The position numbers were made by a program, and so were the translations under genes. From the IMG/VR virus record IMGVR_UViG_2690316269_000009, positions 1-26,403 of that record: a DNA stretch of 26,403 bases; one strand, written 5' to 3'. The notes below the pieces were generated by a model. It had not been told where the DNA came from and did no database searches. It was given only the letters and a program-made list of their open reading frames with translations. This stretch comes from a virus. Its lineage: Duplodnaviria > Heunggongvirae > Uroviricota > Caudoviricetes. Every line of letters starts with the position of its first letter. Positions within the stretch are counted from its first letter, which is position 1. Below are positions 214 through 26,171 of this stretch, one piece after another.

Positions 214-412
214 AAATAAAGGGATAACGATGATAGTTTGAGAAAAACAGAAATAACACTTTTGTGGCAAAGCATGGTGCCGGGTGCCTCCCGGTGAATT
301 CAGTATCAGCACCTGAATCCGCGATTACCCCATATTCCTTCTTGCTGATTGCCCCACCGCACAGGGGGATTCACCATGCAGAAGTGTTTTTAATAAACAG
401 CAAACAAAAAAA

Positions 413-4245: not shown

Positions 4246-4401
4246 TTACTCCTCAGGTTCGTAAGCTGTGAAGACAGCGACCTCCGTCTGGCCGGTTCGG
4301 ATTCGTACCTCGCAGAGGTCTTTCCTCGTTACCAGTGTCGTCACTATGACGGTTAAACAGATGACGATCAGGGCGATTAACATCGCCTTTTGCTGCTTCA
4401 T
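4246..4401 (-). CDS. hokD: Hok-family type I toxin (HokD/RelF-like, 51 aa)
   Basis: MKQQKAMLIALIVICLTVIVTTLVTRKDLCEVRIRTGQTEVAVFTAYEPEE: single TM helix plus conserved C-terminus; an in-frame upstream extension to 4458 (MLDTCRLASYVPEGKEKQA) may be the mok-like leader. Confidence 0.8.
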   Translation of the reverse strand: MKQQKAMLIALIVICLTVIVTTLVTRKDLCEVRIRTGQTEVAVFTAYEPEE

Positions 4402-4714
4402 AGCCTGCTTCTCCTTGCCTTCCGGCACGTAAGAGGCTAACCTACATGTGTCTAGCATGAAATTGGCCTCAGATTAATGTTAAGCGTCTTGCAGGACGCG
4501 TAATGTTAACTGGGGCTTTTCTCTATCTGCCTTTGGTGTTCATGCCTGAGACAGATAGCCTCAAGCACCCGCAGCCATTCTACTTAACTCCCGTTACCCC
4601 GCCAATATGAAATCAGTCAGAAAGGCGATCCATAAGAATAATGAATTCTGTAAGGCAATAGTCTCACTGTCTAACATATCTTACCTGATTACTTTACAAT
4701 ATAATAATTCATAG

Positions 4715-5350
4715 TTAAATCAAATGAATGTCATCATCCAATAATTCATTAGTAGTAATACTACCTTTTTTGAAAAAATTTTCATTTGCCTCAGCAATTT
4801 TTGCATCATTAACAAATTCATCACACATCCCAAAATAATGAAAAAATCTATTTAGTTTACATATTCCAATGGTATAGTGCCCTTTAGGTGTTTTGTCCAC
4901 ATAAACACGATTTGCTTTTATAATATGCATCTCATAATCATCTATATGTGGATGAACGATGCGAAATGATGCAGATGCAGTTGGATAGTTTTTGCGCCGC
5001 CCCCCATTTATTACGGGTTCAAATAACACTTCATTTTTACCTTTGAATTCATTGCAGTCAGGACATACTACACATAGATTCTTAGGTTCAAAAATAAAAC
5101 ATAGATATTGAGATTTTGGCACAATATGCTCTATAGGAGCAGCTTGTGCAGCTCTTACCCCAATAGGCTCATGACAATATACACATTCTAGCTTTTGTTC
5201 TTCTCTGTAATGATTTCTAATTTCTGCACGGAGAACTTGCAAATCATCATCTCCCCAGTTGGTATGCTTAAAATCTGGAGAAGACAATTTTTTCTCAATA
5301 ATATCTAATGACTCTGCGCTGAATCTAATTGGATTTTTAATTTTTGGCAT
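4715..5350 (-). CDS. ptuB: HNH endonuclease, Septu PtuB-like (about 211 aa from ATG at 5350; alternative GTG at 5359)
   Basis: HNH signature CVYCHEP...IEHIVPKSQ...NLCVVCPDCNEFKG; start overlaps the 3' end of the upstream ATPase gene (operon coupling). Confidence 0.7.
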   Translation of the reverse strand: MPKIKNPIRFSAESLDIIEKKLSSPDFKHTNWGDDDLQVLRAEIRNHYREEQKLECVYCHEPIGVRAAQAAPIEHIVPKSQYLCFIFEPKNLCVVCPDCNEFKGKNEVLFEPVINGGRRKNYPTASASFRIVHPHIDDYEMHIIKANRVYVDKTPKGHYTIGICKLNRFFHYFGMCDEFVNDAKIAEANENFFKKGSITTNELLDDDIHLI

Positions 5351-6710
5351 AAATTTCACACACCTGAGATACGGAATTTACGAGTTCATTAATAGGGTCA
5401 TTACTATTAACGTTTTCAAGGAGAAGCTGGAGTTGTTTTAATTCACGCCAATTATCATCTGTTACTAACTTAGCAGTCTTAACTTTTGAAAGTAAATTGA
5501 AAGCTAATCTGGCAATGTATTCATTCATAATGCCAGGGGCATCAAATAGTTCCGCAAGTTGATAGTCTGCAGACCGGTTGCTAAAGTATTTTGCTTTATA
5601 AAGATAACTTTTCGACAAAGATGTTATATAACAACCTTTATTCGGCAAATTGGATATTATTTGTGGTGAATGAGTTGCAATTATGAATTGACAACCTGAG
5701 TAAGTTAAAAATGCTTTTGTTAACATAATGATAAACTCTTCCTGCCATCGAGGATGCAAGCTTATTTCCGGTTCATCAATTAGTATTATAGAACCATCAG
5801 TTATATGCCCTGCAATTCCAAGCAACATCACTAATAAACATTGTTCTCCCGAGCTCGCACGTTTAAGTGACATGGGACCATAGCTTTTTTTTATGAGTCG
5901 CATATCCATCAATCTCATGAAGCCAGCGTTCATAAGTTTAAGAATTGATCTAGAAAAATAATTATTCGCATAAGTCGAGCCAACCAATGTTTCACCATTG
6001 GTAAAATCGACTGACAAGGTTACAGCCCTACGTTCAGGTTCAAATCGATTAATTTCAACCAGTGCTTCGTAAATATCATGACGTGATTCGGAGTTTAACT
6101 TTAAGAGACTCTCAATATTCTTCCTGTCAATTTTTATATTGTATTTTAAATATAACTCCTTAACTTCCGTTAATATCTCATCTGAATATACACCAATGAA
6201 GTTATAGTCAGGAGTGTCCGGTCCGTTGTAAGTTGGTTTAAATACAAACTCTATATGGGGCTCAAAATCAATAGAATGAAAAACATCGAGTAAATTTGCA
6301 GGATTTTCTGAATAAGCAAGTTTCTCTAGCCAACCTCTCGCTGCTGAAGATAAAAGGGATACGGCATTTGATACGCCGAAGGGGCCTTCTCCACGCATAC
6401 CCACATAGCGATAATTATTTTCTTTCCTTTGGTGATTTAATGACCTACGCCCTGGAGGGAATTTATCGAATGGGCTGGTAGATACGGCAATTAACTTTGG
6501 TGTTATTTCTCTGTCAAATAATGGATTAAAAGTTTTCAAGAAATGAATATCTTGAATACAGTCTTTAGCAATCTGAGATAACAATCTGCTTTTTCCAACG
6601 CCATTTTTACCTACAATTACTGTAAAAATATTCGCATTATCAGAAACATCACCTTCTATAGCAAGTTTTAAGGTTCGACTATCATGATGGGTATAATATA
6701 GTCTTTTCAT
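5337..6710 (-). CDS. ptuA: AAA15/ABC-type ATPase, Septu PtuA-like (457 aa)
   Basis: Walker A VIVGKNGVGKS near N-terminus, long insertion, ABC signature-like LKRASSGEQ, Walker B ILIDEPEISLH, H-loop IIATHSPQI; ATG at 6708-6710. Confidence 0.7.
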   Translation of the reverse strand: MKRLYYTHHDSRTLKLAIEGDVSDNANIFTVIVGKNGVGKSRLLSQIAKDCIQDIHFLKTFNPLFDREITPKLIAVSTSPFDKFPPGRRSLNHQRKENNYRYVGMRGEGPFGVSNAVSLLSSAARGWLEKLAYSENPANLLDVFHSIDFEPHIEFVFKPTYNGPDTPDYNFIGVYSDEILTEVKELYLKYNIKIDRKNIESLLKLNSESRHDIYEALVEINRFEPERRAVTLSVDFTNGETLVGSTYANNYFSRSILKLMNAGFMRLMDMRLIKKSYGPMSLKRASSGEQCLLVMLLGIAGHITDGSIILIDEPEISLHPRWQEEFIIMLTKAFLTYSGCQFIIATHSPQIISNLPNKGCYITSLSKSYLYKAKYFSNRSADYQLAELFDAPGIMNEYIARLAFNLLSKVKTAKLVTDDNWRELKQLQLLLENVNSNDPINELVNSVSQVCEIYAKN

Positions 6711-7094
6711 TTTATTTTTCTCTCATTAAAATGCTCTTAATTAAGAATACCTATGCCTTTAACAGGCTCATAGTTATGATTTGTGATGCTTTCAAAAGGG
6801 TATGTAACTAAGTATTGAACTCTACACCTAAGATTCTAAGATTTTTAAATTAAAGTAGTTAAACATGCTTTTGATTGTACTCATTCTATGTCCATCGTTG
6901 CTGCATGTCTAGATATCGTGCCCCGCTATTGTTATGTAATGATATGATGGACGCCCTGTCTGAAGCAGCCAGTGAAATATTTTTACTGTCTGCGTTTTCT
7001 ACAGGAGTAAATCACATGAGCACAATCAGAGTTGTTGGTATTGATATTGACCTGTGCCCAATTTTTTGAGACATATATTGGTACGCTCTTGGCA

Positions 7095-7116
7095 CAGGGC
7101 TGCTGCTGCAGCCCTG
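7095..7116. repeat. Perfect 9-bp inverted repeat / hairpin (cagggctgc tgct gcagccctg) just past the recombinase remnant stop
   Basis: Read directly; no adjacent T-run, so not a classical intrinsic terminator; possible recombination site or transcript 3' structure. Confidence 0.4.
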
Positions 7117-7122
7117 ACAGCT

Positions 7123-7691
7123 TTAGACTTCGATCGATTCAGAGATCTCTAATGCATCATCAACTTCTATACCCAGATAACGAACTGTGCTTTCCGTTTT
7201 CTTATGGCCCAACGGAAGTTGGATCACCCGGAGATTCTTAGTTTTCTTGCAGACAAGGCAAGGTTTTGTTCTTCTCATGGAATGTGTGCTGTAAAGCGAA
7301 TCTTCGAGACCAAGCTTTTCTCCCCCCTATGAAAGATTCGGTTATATTGCAGGATTGATATGTGTTGGTTAGTACCGACCCGAGATCGGAACAAGTAGTC
7401 TTTACTGCGTAAATTGCCAAGCTTTATCAATGCAGAAACAGCTTCTCTTGTCCCTTTGGTTATCTCAAATTGGATAGGACTGCCAGTTTTTCAGTTGCAA
7501 CACCGTAGCTCTGCTTGAAACCGAGCTAAATCACGCGTTTTACCTTCCAGTTCAAGCCGGATTTGGAGCCCCCAGATATGAGATATCTGAAGTGGTCTTT
7601 TTGGGCCTATGATACTGTCTTTGTTCCTCGGTGACGTATTCATACTCAAATCTCCTGCAATGTGGAAGATTTGAGTATGGTTGTCTCTCAA
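7123..7691 (-). pseudogene. Degenerate tyrosine recombinase (phage-integrase family) remnant, split across at least three frames
   Basis: C-terminal frame reads ...KNLRVIQLPLGHKKTESTVRYLGIEVDDALEISESIEV* (LGH....T.RY catalytic-Tyr box); upstream frames give LFRSRVGTNQHISILQYNRIFHRG and ALQHTFHEKN with frameshifts and stops between. Confidence 0.45.
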
Positions 7692-7748
7692 GAGCGAAAT
7701 AGGTCAACTATAACTAGTTGTTGTGCATGTACGAATTCTGCCAATTAA

Positions 7749-8591
7749 TTATTGACAATAAAAAATTCTGGAATGTTCGAAATCATCATATCGAATTATA
7801 ATCTGGTTGACTGCATCTATTGTTGGCGCCATTTCAGTTATAATATCTCGATAACCTAAAGAGTTAAATACATTTACTAAGGCCTCACACCGTAGGCCAA
7901 TAGCAATTACGACATTATAAATTGCCAGCCGTTTATTTTCTTGTTTAACTGCAAGAGTGAGTTCGATAGCAGTAGTTTTATCGCTTTGGATTGCATTATA
8001 TAGAGATACTATATTTGCCATATCATCAGAGAATGTATGTATTGAATCACAAAGAGGGACGTAATAGGCATGATAGTGTGTTTCCCAGCCAATTACTTCG
8101 AAAAGCTTTTTGGTTCCAGGATATTCAGGTGTATTTGGCCACAATCTATTAAACATATCAGTTAGCTCTTTTCCGATACGAATCCTTTCATCTGCTGCTG
8201 GATTAGTCATTTCTTTGGATTTTAAACACTCCAGCCACCGTTTCCCATTACTATGAACTAATTTCTTACTACCCTTGAGTAATGCTTGTGCATTTTTTCC
8301 ATCATCAATTGCTATATAAAATTGATTGGCAGCCTGTTCCATTATAACTCTAGTTAATACTTCCGATGCTGAAAAGGCTCCGGTACTCAAAGAAAATATA
8401 GCCTGATTACTAAGTTCATTCAGTACATTAAAGTAATGTAAAACCATCAATTTTTGTTCCACCCCCTTTAGGTTATCTATTTTATTTTTATGCCTCTCAA
8501 ATTTCGCATGGATATATTTATTTATCGCGGCTATTTTTTTTACATCTTCGTCGAAATCAAACGGGCAACGTCCAAACGATTTTTTCCTCAT
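7749..8591 (-). CDS. Hypothetical protein (280 aa), unrecognised; candidate single-gene abortive-infection/defence factor
   Basis: Clean ORF with ATG at 8589-8591 and strong AGGAGG Shine-Dalgarno 6-8 nt upstream; AT-rich; same orientation as the ATPase/HNH pair. Confidence 0.6.
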   Translation of the reverse strand: MRKKSFGRCPFDFDEDVKKIAAINKYIHAKFERHKNKIDNLKGVEQKLMVLHYFNVLNELSNQAIFSLSTGAFSASEVLTRVIMEQAANQFYIAIDDGKNAQALLKGSKKLVHSNGKRWLECLKSKEMTNPAADERIRIGKELTDMFNRLWPNTPEYPGTKKLFEVIGWETHYHAYYVPLCDSIHTFSDDMANIVSLYNAIQSDKTTAIELTLAVKQENKRLAIYNVVIAIGLRCEALVNVFNSLGYRDIITEMAPTIDAVNQIIIRYDDFEHSRIFYCQ

Positions 8592-9030
8592 ATATTCCTC
8601 CTGTTTTACAATCTCCCATAAGTTGGAAAATTATACACTGGAGATTACCTATAAATAACTGCGCACGATAGCTAGTCAGTGCAAGAAGTACAACCAAGTG
8701 AACGGTGCGTATCAGATACCTAGCTTAAAGTTCGCGATAGCCGTACTCTGTGTATTAGCTCAGACATTACCTGACAGGTTGAGTAGATAGAATCGAATCA
8801 AAGCTGACAGTCTGGTTTGGACTGTGGGGTCAACCGATGGATGCAACACACAGCGATCTACAGACATTACTAACATAGCGGTGTATTAATCATCGGGGAG
8901 CAGATCAGACTAACATTAAGCATTAGTAGTAATTTGCAGAGCATCCGTTTCTTACACAAAGCAAACCCCCACGCTAGCCCAACCCTGTGCCACACAATGT
9001 CAATTCACATCTGAACTAATGCTCTTTAAT

Positions 9031-9305
9031 CTAGTAACGTCTAAAATATCGAACATTTCCCTGATAAAATGCCAGTATGCGCTGCATAACTTCACTCATT
9101 GTGGTGGTTTCTTCCGGCAGTTCTGCCTGCGCTGGCTGTTCCTGCTGAACGTTGTTATCAGCCACACGCCAGGTGTACGCGCTTTTATCAACAAAACCAG
9201 CCTTTTTCAGTTCCCATAGTTCGTTCAGCACTTCTTCACGCGCGCAGCAAGTTCTATGGATGTGGCTTTTCCCATTGCTTTCAGTGCGTCAAAAACAGTC
9301 TCCAT
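9031..9305 (-). pseudogene. Small prophage gene with -1 frameshift ([24 protein letters not shown] | [28 protein letters not shown]...)
   Basis: ATG at 9303-9305 with strong GGGAGG RBS; frame hits TGA after 26 codons while the protein-like reading continues in the -1 frame (track ORF 9031..9231). Shift maps to gtgaagaagtg. Confidence 0.45.
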
Positions 9306-13117: not shown

Positions 13118-13175
13118 TTTCTGGTGACGTTTGGCGGTATCAGTTTTACTCCGTGACTGCTCTGCCGCCCTTTTT
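13118..13175 (+). ncRNA. dicF: DicF small regulatory RNA (ftsZ-targeting sRNA of dic-type prophages)
   Basis: tttctggtgacgtttggcggtatcagttttactccgtgactgctctgccgccc + ttttt matches the DicF sequence as recalled, including terminal GGCGG/CCGCC hairpin and U-tail; sits upstream of dicB. Confidence 0.7.
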
Positions 13176-16343: not shown

Positions 16344-16547
16344 ATGAGCAACTTATTTTTAACCGAAGATGAATTGCTAATATTAACGGGCTGCAAATAT
16401 GCAAGCCACCAGCGAAAATGGTTAACGGAAAACGGGCTTCCGTTCTATACCAATCGTAGTGGCAAACCGATTGTCAGCCGGGATCTATTTACCTGCAATA
16501 AAACTTTACCACCACGCGAGGTAGAGCCGAATTTTGGTGCAATCTAA
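16344..16547 (+). CDS. Excisionase-like protein (67 aa)
   Basis: Small ORF immediately upstream of int with stop/start overlap (TAATG at 16545-16549). Confidence 0.55.
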   Translation: MSNLFLTEDELLILTGCKYASHQRKWLTENGLPFYTNRSGKPIVSRDLFTCNKTLPPREVEPNFGAI

Positions 16548-17572
16548 TGGGAAGACGAAGGAAAAATCCTGAACACGAAAAACTACCTCCAAATGTATAC
16601 CCAAATAAATATAGTTATGTATGGAAACCAACATCCAGAGAATCTGTCACACTAACCGCCATCAAGGATGGTTTAGCTGCTTTATGGAAAAAGTATGAGG
16701 AAACTGTAAATAATCGCGATCGTGCAATGACATTCGGTCGCTTGTGGGAAAAATTCCTCGCCAGCGCCTATTACAGTGACCTCAGTCCAAGAACACAAAA
16801 AGATTATCTGCAACATCAAAAAAAGTTGCTTGCCGTATTCGGTAAGGTGCCGGCAGATTCCATAAAACCAGAACACATCCGTCGATACATGGACAAGAGA
16901 GGGGAACAGAGTAAAACGCAAGCCAACCATGAAAAAAGCAGTATGTCCCGCGTTTACAGTTGGGGGTATGAGCGAGGGTACGTGAAGGCTAACCCATGTG
17001 CAGGTGTAAGTAAATTCAAGGCCAAAAACCGCGAACGATATGTAACCGACAAAGAATACCAGGCAGTATTAAGCGTTGCACCTCTTCCTGTTTTTATCGC
17101 AATGGAAATTGCCTATCTGTGTGCAGCGAGGGTTTCCGATGTGTTATCGCTGAAATGGGAGCAGATTGGAAACGACGGAATCTTTATCCAGCAAGGGAAA
17201 ACAGGAAAAAAACAGATAAAAGCATGGAGTCCACGATTACAGGCGGCGATCGAAAAAGCAAAACAGTTACCAACATCCGCCTATGTAATCAGTAATCAAT
17301 ACGGCAACCGATATATGTACAAAGGCTTTAACGAAATGTGGGTAGAAGCAAGAAATCGCGCAGGCAAAATTTCAGGTATTTTAACCGACTTCACCTTTCA
17401 TGATCTGAAGGCGAAAGGAATTTCAGACTATGAAGGAAGCAGTCGGGATAAGCAACTTTTCTCTGGTCACAAAACCGAGGGGCAAGTGCTAATCTATGAC
17501 AGGAAGGTTAAAGTTTCACCGACACTTGATGTCCCGTTACCTGAAAATATTCCAAGAAAATATTCCAAGTAA
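16547..17572 (+). CDS. Tyrosine site-specific integrase (phage integrase family, 341 aa)
   Basis: Typical size and tyrosine-recombinase organisation; ends 53 bp from the 3' end of tRNA-Ser. Confidence 0.85.
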   Translation: MGRRRKNPEHEKLPPNVYPNKYSYVWKPTSRESVTLTAIKDGLAALWKKYEETVNNRDRAMTFGRLWEKFLASAYYSDLSPRTQKDYLQHQKKLLAVFGKVPADSIKPEHIRRYMDKRGEQSKTQANHEKSSMSRVYSWGYERGYVKANPCAGVSKFKAKNRERYVTDKEYQAVLSVAPLPVFIAMEIAYLCAARVSDVLSLKWEQIGNDGIFIQQGKTGKKQIKAWSPRLQAAIEKAKQLPTSAYVISNQYGNRYMYKGFNEMWVEARNRAGKISGILTDFTFHDLKAKGISDYEGSSRDKQLFSGHKTEGQVLIYDRKVKVSPTLDVPLPENIPRKYSK

Positions 17573-17624
17573 TTCCAAGTGTGATTTTTGTCACTGACTT
17601 AATGATGTATAAGTGATTGAATTT

Positions 17625-17714
17625 TGGCGGAGAGAGGGGGATTTGAACCCCCGGTGGAGTTGCCCCCACTCCGGTTTTCGAGACCGGTCCGTTCAGCCGC
17701 TCCGGCATCTCTCC
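17625..17714 (-). tRNA. serU: tRNA-Ser (anticodon CGA)
   Basis: Minus strand reads ggagagatgccggagcggctgaacggaccggtctcgaaaaccggagtgggggcaactccaccgggggttcaaatccccctctctccgcca: cloverleaf with long variable arm, anticodon loop ctCGAaa, 3' CCA. Confidence 0.85.
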
Positions 17715-17807
17715 GTTCAGATGGTTGCCATGATGCCAGGAAATTTGGCATTTTAACAGTCCCTGTCCGTGCAATTTTGTTCAAGTGACGAGTTTGCGAG
17801 CAAAACG

Positions 17808-18605
17808 ATGATTAAGTGGCCCTGGAAAGTACAAGAATCAGCACATCAAACTGCCCTTCCCTGGCAGGAAGCACTATCGATCCCCCTTTTAACGTGTCTG
17901 ACGGAACAGGAACAAAGCAAATTAGTCACTCTTGCCGAACGTTTTTTACAGCAAAAGCGGCTTGTTCCTTTACAGGGCTTTGAACTGGATTCATTAAGAA
18001 GCTGCCGGATAGCACTTCTATTTTGCCTACCCGTTCTGGAGTTAGGACTGGAATGGCTGGATGGTTTTCATGAAGTCTTAATTTATCCTGCGCCATTTGT
18101 GGTCGATGATGAATGGGAAGACGATATCGGTCTGGTGCATAACCAACGTATTGTTCAGTCAGGTCAGAGCTGGCAGCAAGGGCCTATCGTTTTGAACTGG
18201 TTGGATATACAAGATTCTTTTGATGCTTCTGGTTTTAACCTGATTATTCATGAAGTCGCTCATAAGCTGGACACCCGTAACGGCGATCGCGCCAGCGGAG
18301 TTCCCTTTATTCCGTTGCGTGAGGTTGCTGGCTGGGAACACGATCTTCATGCTGCAATGAACAACATTCAGGAAGAAATCGAATTGGTTGGCGAGAATGC
18401 GGCGAGCATTGATGCTTATGCTGCCAGTGATCCTGCTGAATGTTTTGCCGTACTTTCTGAATATTTCTTTAGCGCCCCAGAACTTTTTGCTCCTCGTTTC
18501 CCTTCATTGTGGCAACGTTTCTGCCAATTTTATCAACAAGATCCTTTGCAGAGACTGCATCGCACTAATGATACAGACTCGTTTTCGGCGACGAATGTTC
18601 ATTAA
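17808..18605 (+). CDS. mtfA: Mlc titration factor A (MtfA, zinc-dependent peptidase, 265 aa)
   Basis: Starts [22 protein letters not shown]...; contains HEVAH zinc-binding motif; length matches the start at ATG 17808. Confidence 0.85.
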
Positions 18606-18705
18606 TTAACAACTTTGCAGATTAATTAACCAATTGAAATGACTTATGAAATTTAGTGTTGACAGACAAGGTACCGCTAAGTAATATGCGCCCCGTTCAC
18701 ACGAT

Positions 18706-18781
18706 TCCTCTGTAGTTCAGTCGGTAGAACGGCGGACTGTTAATCCGTATGTCACTGGTTCGAGTCCAGTCAGAGGAGCCA
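18706..18781 (+). tRNA. asnT: tRNA-Asn (anticodon GUU)
   Basis: tcctctgtagttcagtcggtagaacggcggactGTTaatccgtatgtcactggttcgagtccagtcagaggagcca: canonical 76-nt tRNA with CCA. Confidence 0.9.
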
Positions 18782-18901: not shown

Positions 18902-19094
18902 GCTATGAACGCCATCACCATTTTCCCCTCGATTATAAAACTTGAGTTATTCAGTAGTCTCCCCTCTTGCAACTCACACTCAAAACTGCCTAACGAAAAG
19001 TTATTAATTTTCAATCATATTGCTATCAGGATTTACATTTTTTCGCTGTGCTAGAAAGGGCGCATTTATGTTAGCTCGTTCAGGGAAGGTAAGC

Positions 19095-26171
<7,077 letters not shown>

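Follow-up and report, generated by a model that had tools for sequence, protein, structure and literature searches.

A probable stand-alone Septu defence cassette carried as cargo by a Qin-like lambdoid prophage of Escherichia coli

The DNA considered here is a stretch of 26,403 nucleotides (nt), hereafter the window, which makes up positions 1 to 26,403 of IMG/VR virus record IMGVR_UViG_2690316269_000009 (Caudoviricetes). Two overlapping genes on its minus strand, ptuA and ptuB, encode an ABC-type ATPase and an HNH nuclease, and very probably constitute a stand-alone (type I) Septu anti-phage defence cassette borne as prophage cargo. An earlier note, compiled by a model from the sequence alone, had described a gene for a 457-amino-acid (aa) ATPase followed by an overlapping HNH gene, and both open reading frames (ORFs; 5337..6710 and 4715..5359, minus strand) were found exactly. 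Two start codons are available for ptuB, an ATG at 5350 and a GTG at 5359, which give overlaps with ptuA of 14 nt and 23 nt, respectively. In RefSeq, where identical DNA is annotated, the ATPase is WP_000827088.1 and the nuclease (WP_001124204.1) starts at the ATG; moreover, an AGGTG sits 10 nt 5' of this ATG and just 1 nt from the GTG. Because the RefSeq annotation and the spacing of AGGTG both favour the ATG, the 211-aa numbering of PtuB is used throughout (Table 1).

Membership of the pair in the Septu family was established by profile searches, which the earlier note had proposed as a check of its Septu PtuA/PtuB assignment. The ATPase scored above the Pfam gathering cut-offs for AAA_21 (74.7 bits, 1.8e-20) and AAA_15 (61.7 bits, 1.2e-16), and PtuB did so for HNH (23.9 bits, 4.6e-5; cut-off 21.4). 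The top PADLOC models were those of Septu type I, and both proteins were matched end to end: the ATPase by PtuA1 (PDLC00283; 549 bits, 1.9e-165, residues 2-455 on model positions 3-447 of 448) and the nuclease by PtuB1 (PDLC00325; 278 bits, 1.1e-83, 211 aa against 213 model positions). The next non-Septu models for the ATPase trailed far behind, namely PDC-M01A (96 bits), AriA (78 bits) and AbiLi (63 bits). The arrangement of ptuA then ptuB on one strand with an overlap is the Septu gene order, and the same pair is kept in distant genera. The suspicion that the ATPase is short for a PtuA, and hence perhaps divergent or distinct, did not hold: the PADLOC models of PtuA have between 375 and 535 positions (448 in the best-matching one), the solved stand-alone E. 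coli PtuA has 465 aa, and only retron PtuA proteins are longer. The pair is an already catalogued kind of Septu type I whose PtuA subfamily is covered by curated models, and novelty at the level of kind is nil. The defence function of this particular allele is putative and is taken from other Septu systems.

The ATPase motifs quoted in the note are all present, namely Walker A (GKNGVGKS, residues 34-41, with K40), the signature (SSGEQ, 286-290), Walker B (ILIDEPE, 309-315, with D312/E313) and the H-loop (ATHSP, 345-349, with H347), and are joined by a D-loop histidine (H319). In the nuclease, the CxxCH...H part of the quoted motif was recovered (CVYCH, then E-H bearing the catalytic His, N, and CVVCPDCN), but its last element reads C-x2-C-x2-C-N and is not literally CxxCxxN. 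The PtuB residues concerned are the catalytic H75 and N91, N100, the zinc-binding C56/C59/C96/C99, and C93. Among 62 homologues of the ATPase (42-90% identity), the invariant positions comprise Walker A (G34-x-N-G-x-G-K-S41), an STSPFDKF block (77-84), the signature (A285-SSGEQC), Walker B (I311-DEPE), the D-loop (S317-L-H319) and the H-loop (A345-THSPQ). Likewise, C56, C59, H75, N91, C93, C96 and C99 are invariant among 66 homologues of the nuclease, and N100 is nearly so. Given that these motif residues are invariant across the homologue alignments, both PtuA and PtuB look catalytically competent. Relatives of the ATPase number more than 4,000 in a database search, are mostly 444-465 aa long and occur in Klebsiella, Dickeya, Cronobacter, Pseudomonas, Stenotrophomonas, Vibrio and other genera; a parallel family exists for the nuclease.

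Structure prediction points to the same family by the ranking of its matches, although the scores are modest. The AlphaFold (AF2) model of PtuA has a mean predicted local distance difference test score (pLDDT) of 83, and its best 50 Foldseek matches in the PDB (E = 2e-9 to 3e-6) are all PtuA chains except for one AriA of PARIS. These matches span retrons Ec78/Eco7, Ec83 and I-A together with the E. coli Septu structures 8EEA, 8EE4 and 8SUX. Global template modelling scores (TM-scores) to them are low (0.2-0.36), which is usual where a protein has several domains and mobile arms. The C-terminus of the model consists of three helices (392-456), which would fit the published PtuB-clamping extension of PtuA; PMC12819146 describes paired C-terminal extensions that sandwich PtuB in a nine-helix bundle. 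The PtuB model is less confident (pLDDT 77, lower in the zinc-finger core) and its fold scores are weak (E = 0.04-0.2, TM about 0.4), with the PtuB chains of Ec83, E. coli Septu (8EEA_G) and retron I-A ranking ahead of Cas9 HNH domains. When the PtuB family profile was compared with PDB sequences, the top four distinct matches were all PtuB (1.2e-5 to 0.009), and these chains were reached by the profile alone, since a single-sequence search of the PDB sequences with PtuB gave no match. The PtuA profile retrieved AriA, retron PtuA and Septu PtuA, in that order.

The pair also behaves as a transferable unit. Over the whole cassette, which includes about 207 nt upstream of ptuA and 13 nt downstream of ptuB, nucleotide identity to two Klebsiella variicola loci (L008/L009) is 85% by blastn, and identity to Dickeya is 75% over 4782-6746. 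The overlapping pair lies at a prophage end in K. variicola (86% identity), beside a GAP1/GASH/DO-GTPase conflict island in Dickeya dadantii (70% identity) and on an integrase-bearing island in Pseudomonas aeruginosa (43% identity), and these loci have no common neighbour besides the pair itself. The two genes move together and bring the region upstream of them into genomic settings that are otherwise unrelated. Within that upstream region, a candidate sigma-70 promoter was located about 170 nt 5' of the ptuA ATG, and its hexamers and spacing are identical in the K. variicola cassette. A second promoter-like site (6862-6833) was dropped, as its spacing is not kept in Klebsiella. No intrinsic terminator was found 3' of ptuB.

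Table 1. Coordinates of the Septu cassette and of other features in the window
Feature	Position	Strand	Remarks
ptuA	5337..6710	-	457-aa ABC-type (AAA_21/AAA_15) ATPase; from the ORF list
ptuB	4715..5350	-	211-aa HNH nuclease from ATG; alternative GTG at 5359 gives 214 aa
Transferable ptuAB cassette	4702..6917	-	ptuA and ptuB with 13 nt of downstream and about 207 nt of upstream DNA; blastn
Candidate sigma-70 promoter of ptuAB	6883..6911	-	TAGACA, 17-nt spacer, TAGAAT; consensus match 10/12
AT-rich cargo block	4598..9100	.	ptuB, ptuA, integrase pseudogene, DUF5677 gene
Integrase pseudogene	7123-7643	-	frameshifted tyrosine recombinase remnant between ptuA and DUF5677 gene
DUF5677 gene	7749-8591	-	280-aa protein
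hokD toxin gene	4246-4401	-	RefSeq; part of left conserved flank of slot
sok antisense RNA region	4396-4570	-	Rfam 117 bits (gathering 59); left conserved flank of slot
STnc100 small RNA match	236-408	-	100.8 bits, near window start
DicF antisense small RNA	13119-13170	+	Rfam 76.7 bits
Intact integrase gene	within 16547-18778		341 aa
tRNA	17628-17714	-	tRNA-Ser in sibling locus; probable attachment site
tRNA	18706-18778		tRNA-Asn in sibling locus
yeeJ	19020-26171		uninterrupted 2,383-aa ORF

The cassette belongs to a 4.5-kb AT-rich block inserted in a lambdoid prophage backbone. G+C content (GC) is 0.32-0.43 across the block and 0.32-0.38 over 4501-7000, compared with about 0.46-0.55 in the flanks, which bears out the AT-rich block described in the earlier note. 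The backbone runs rem, hokD/sok, cargo, DUF1627', P, O-like, ydaT and cro, followed by a dicA-like repressor, ydfABC, DicF, dicB, ydfD, exonuclease, xis and int. The note had further placed the pair in a lambdoid prophage where hok is followed by relBE in Qin-type prophages, and this was confirmed: K-12 Qin has the order rem-hokD-relE-relB (its cargo being relE-relB-ydfV-flxA), whereas the window has rem-hokD-ptuB-ptuA. A sibling prophage that occupies this chromosomal position (tRNA-Ser/mtfA/yeeJ) in Z1322HEC0010 is homologous to the window as far as 4597 and from 9101 onward, and its slot is occupied by a Paa adhesin gene and a fimbrial remnant. Across the eight loci sampled, including five extra genomes, the slot elsewhere holds an AIPR-family abortive-infection gene (HN257), QueH (S5) or small nin/ea-like ORFs (CFT073 and O157 strains). 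Since the sampled strains bear different cargo there, the interval between hok/sok and the replication genes of this Qin-like prophage accommodates variable cargo, for which the term "moron" is apt. The locus is one more case of lambdoid prophages exchanging defence, toxin-antitoxin and virulence cargo at a fixed slot by hok/sok. The genes ptuAB are co-oriented with the early rightward operon, and read-through after induction is possible in addition to transcription from their own candidate promoter.

Two further genes share the block with ptuAB. Many E. coli strains (e.g., Nissle) have island integrase genes whose 3' part shares about 90% identity with the integrase remnant, and this resemblance suggests that the prophage took up an integrative element of which the AT-rich block is what is left. 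The DUF5677 protein (Pfam, 3.3e-9) matches PHROG 4167, a family of unassigned function, over its full length and has no PADLOC match; one defence screen, described in a preprint, included an Enterococcus DUF5677 ORF and did not count it among its active genes (PMC12632615). Both genes were considered as extra components of the system and rejected, given that they co-occur with ptuAB in E. coli only and are not beside the Klebsiella, Dickeya and Pseudomonas homologues.

Other features of the window concern the prophage as a whole. An STnc100 small RNA match lies near the window start, and the DicF antisense small RNA is immunity-proximal and 5' of dicB, as in Qin. The intact integrase gene is followed by a tRNA that is the probable attachment site, beyond which are mtfA, the second tRNA and yeeJ; this last gene encodes an inverse-autotransporter adhesin and, although uninterrupted here, carries a frameshift in certain other strains. 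In E. coli FORC 064, a second hokD locus (L001 39809-42601) carries genes for a hypothetical protein, a class I S-adenosylmethionine-dependent methyltransferase and a SMEK-domain protein, possibly another conflict-system cargo beside hok.

The cassette was found in 19 of 5,426 complete E. coli genomes, among them the prototype enteropathogenic E. coli (EPEC) strain E2348/69, and 18 of the 19 copies are intact and at least 99.8% identical at the nucleotide level. All 19 genomes have the whole block, integrase remnant and DUF5677 gene included, and in E. coli the DUF5677 gene was seen nowhere but together with ptuAB. In E2348/69, an IS481-family transposase gene (L006 7963-9051) is located between hokD and ptuB and leaves ptuAB undisrupted. 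Nucleotide and protein searches of a phage collection of 50,697 records returned no record with the pair, the matches being limited to hok/sok and two distant partial ATPases.

The mode of action proposed here is modelled on related systems. The PtuAB proteins of E. coli ATCC 25922 are described, in reports that summarise them, as a PtuA6:PtuB2 assembly with a DNA-nicking or DNA-cleaving nuclease that ATP inhibits (PMC12640716, PMC12819146, PMC11555353). A clinical E. coli is the source of Septu EcB88, which stops T5-like, T4 and T6 phages with impaired growth of the infected cells; protection by EcB88 depends on both the ATPase and the HNH nuclease and involves cleavage of tRNA-Tyr (PMC13096335). 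A Providencia Septu blocks T7 (PMC12935923), and a phage tail-fibre protein is reported to sensitise Septu (PMC12819146). By analogy, the PtuA studied here would oligomerise via its ATPase heads, with the three C-terminal helices clamping the helical domain of PtuB, and in the uninfected cell ATP-bound PtuA would hold the nuclease inactive. A phage cue, or a fall in ATP at the time of infection, may then release or license PtuB, whose beta-beta-alpha-metal site (H75/N91/N100) would cut nucleic acid, with DNA and tRNA-Tyr both being conceivable substrates. Phage replication would halt at a cost to the growth of the infected cell, and the lysogen, and hence the prophage, would be guarded against competing phages.

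Some observations weigh against the interpretation of the locus as a functional type I Septu cassette. Single-sequence comparison of PtuA with the solved stand-alone E. coli PtuA (8EE4) gave 32.6 bits, rising to 45.8 bits with a profile and covering the Walker B region only, and PtuB reached the solved stand-alone E. coli Septu PtuB at E = 0.009 by profile only. The catalytic numbering also differs, as the residues mutated in E. coli Septu PtuA are K43/D316/E317/H321, compared with K40/D312/E313/H319 here (PMC13096335; bioRxiv 10.1101/2022.08.21.504612). Global TM-scores of the predicted models against solved PtuA and PtuB chains are 0.2-0.43, too low for a quaternary arrangement to be deduced. 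Promoter-like sites in the region are not above shuffled expectation, so that the site upstream of ptuA is a candidate only, and no mention of WP_000827088 or WP_001124204 was found in the papers searched. Furthermore, one of the 19 carriers (Z1323PEC0010; NZ_CP148282.1 1970190-1972184) has ptuA split by a 1-nt deletion and annotated as two proteins; the frameshift has probably inactivated the gene, which makes the cassette dispensable.

The last of these observations also bears on an alternative in which ptuAB would act mainly as an addiction module, resembling a toxin-antitoxin pair, that stabilises the prophage (PtuB being a toxin restrained by PtuA, with loss of the element penalised), or else a decaying, non-functional remnant. 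The slot holds relBE in K-12 Qin and adjoins hok/sok, and the retron-Eco7 PtuAB proteins are toxic without their retron partner (PMC12640716). The frameshifted ptuA, the dead integrase gene in the block and the degraded state of the host prophage in strain FORC 064 also count in favour of this alternative. However, 18 of the 19 E. coli copies are intact and nearly identical, the catalytic residues are all kept across genera, the cassette also occurs outside prophages in contexts resembling defence islands, and the Septu homologues that have been tested protect against phage (PMC13096335, PMC12935923). Addiction and defence by abortive infection are, in addition, not mutually exclusive. This alternative is considered improbable. 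A role in the prophage's own DNA metabolism, for instance an HNH endonuclease for packaging or recombination with an accessory ATPase, is harder still to credit and is regarded as extremely improbable. HNH endonucleases are common phage genes, the pair shares its strand with the early rightward operon and lies between P, a replication gene, and the nin/Q region, and PtuB matches a PHROG family of unassigned function over its full length; yet sibling prophages built on this backbone lack the two genes, which are not beside the terminase genes, have a GC about 15 points below that of the phage backbone, recur as the same cassette in non-phage islands and occur as a pair in none of the sequenced phage records searched.

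It is also very improbable, for different reasons, that the genes encode another ATPase-nuclease defence system that resembles Septu, such as a PARIS-like, AbiL-like, PDC-M01 or retron-effector module. Among PDB sequences the ATPase matches AriA of PARIS best (50-65 bits), its top Pfam domain is AAA_21, a type common to AriA and AbiL, and PDC-M01A, AriA and AbiLi are among its weaker PADLOC matches. The AriA match is nevertheless confined to the surroundings of the signature and Walker B (about 70 residues), whereas PtuA1 is matched over its full length at 549 bits, compared with 78 bits for the AriA model, and the partner protein matches PtuB1 and is an HNH nuclease rather than a Toprim/DUF4435 AriB. 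A retron-effector module is opposed by the lack of a nearby reverse transcriptase gene and by scores far below the cut-offs of the NCBIfam retron models. A stand-alone type I Septu cassette is retained as the very likely identity of the locus. PADLOC, and probably DefenseFinder too, would call it as such, and in this respect the finding adds little. Its value may lie elsewhere: the allele represents a Septu subfamily remote in sequence from those studied structurally or biochemically and could help to settle whether DNA or tRNA-Tyr is the general target of the Septu nuclease. Moreover, the prototype strain E2348/69 offers a convenient native-host model in which a knockout would be easy.

Among known systems, the type II Septu of type I-A retrons (Ec78/Eco7, Ec83/Eco4) has homologous effectors, and these provide the best PtuA fold matches and the best PtuB profile matches. 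Retron PtuA proteins are 542-552 aa long, about 90 residues longer than the 457 aa here, and the shorter length fits the published absence of retron-binding elements (N-terminal extension and helical flap) in stand-alone PtuA. The NCBIfam models for retron PtuA (65.8 bits; cut-off 500) and retron PtuB (30.5 bits; cut-off 150) scored far below threshold, and no reverse transcriptase ORF is nearby, the neighbours being hok/sok, the integrase pseudogene and the DUF5677 gene. In the interval from sok to DicF there is no match to an Rfam family, although whether Rfam holds retron msr/msd models was not checked. The cassette is accordingly assigned to the stand-alone (type I) form. PARIS is excluded because the partner gene encodes an HNH nuclease and not a Toprim protein, and the AbiLi score is far below that of PtuA1; AbiLii was not among the best 25 of the 63 PADLOC matches of the second protein.

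Another comparable system is the Septu that Rousset et al. (2022, PMC9122126) noted in P4-like satellites of E. coli, at the psu-int hotspot; it shows full-length homology (39% for PtuA, 40% for PtuB) and the same overlapping operon as cargo of a mobile element. It differs in the length of PtuA (414 aa) and in its carrier, a P4 satellite at tRNA-Thr in place of a lambdoid prophage. In STEC409, mip270_05 and 63-2 (L002-L004), for example, PtuA has 414-415 aa and PtuB 217 aa, and the genes are located between psu and int at the tRNA-Thr next to proA. Septu EcB88 is, like the present pair, a stand-alone system of E. coli, and the catalytic residues of its PtuB carry the same numbers, H75 and N91 (PMC13096335). 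In the Septu I of Wu et al. the D-loop His (H321) follows the Walker B Asp by 5 residues, compared with 7 here (H319). Motif numbering and the weak scores against PDB sequences together indicate that the PtuA of this locus belongs to a different subfamily from the studied E. coli Septu proteins.

The Septu of E. coli ATCC 25922 (8EE4, 8EE7, 8EEA, 8SUX) has the same architecture, with a PtuA of 465 aa against 457 aa here, and its chains are among the top fold matches of both proteins. Its PtuA is reported to have a Leu at the position of the signature Gln and to lack ATPase activity (PMC12819146). This Gln is kept in the present protein (SSGEQ, with Q290 invariant), and for this reason the PtuA clade to which it belongs may hydrolyse ATP. 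A broader proposal, speculative and rather unlikely to be correct, is that the AAA_21-type clade works unlike the ATCC 25922 system and that the slot is an undescribed hotspot of defence and toxin-antitoxin genes, with DUF5677 as a possible further defence candidate. The first part draws on the signature Gln, the D-loop His at +7 and the wide occurrence of 457-aa PtuA in Enterobacterales and Pseudomonas; if it were true, the clade may genuinely hydrolyse ATP, respond to a different phage trigger or act on a different nucleic acid.

Septu type I (PtuA/PtuB) was reportedly defined by Doron et al. in 2018. Compared with Septu type I as modelled in PADLOC, the pair described here has the same architecture and proteins of model length (457 aa of PtuA for 448 model positions), with no structural difference between them.

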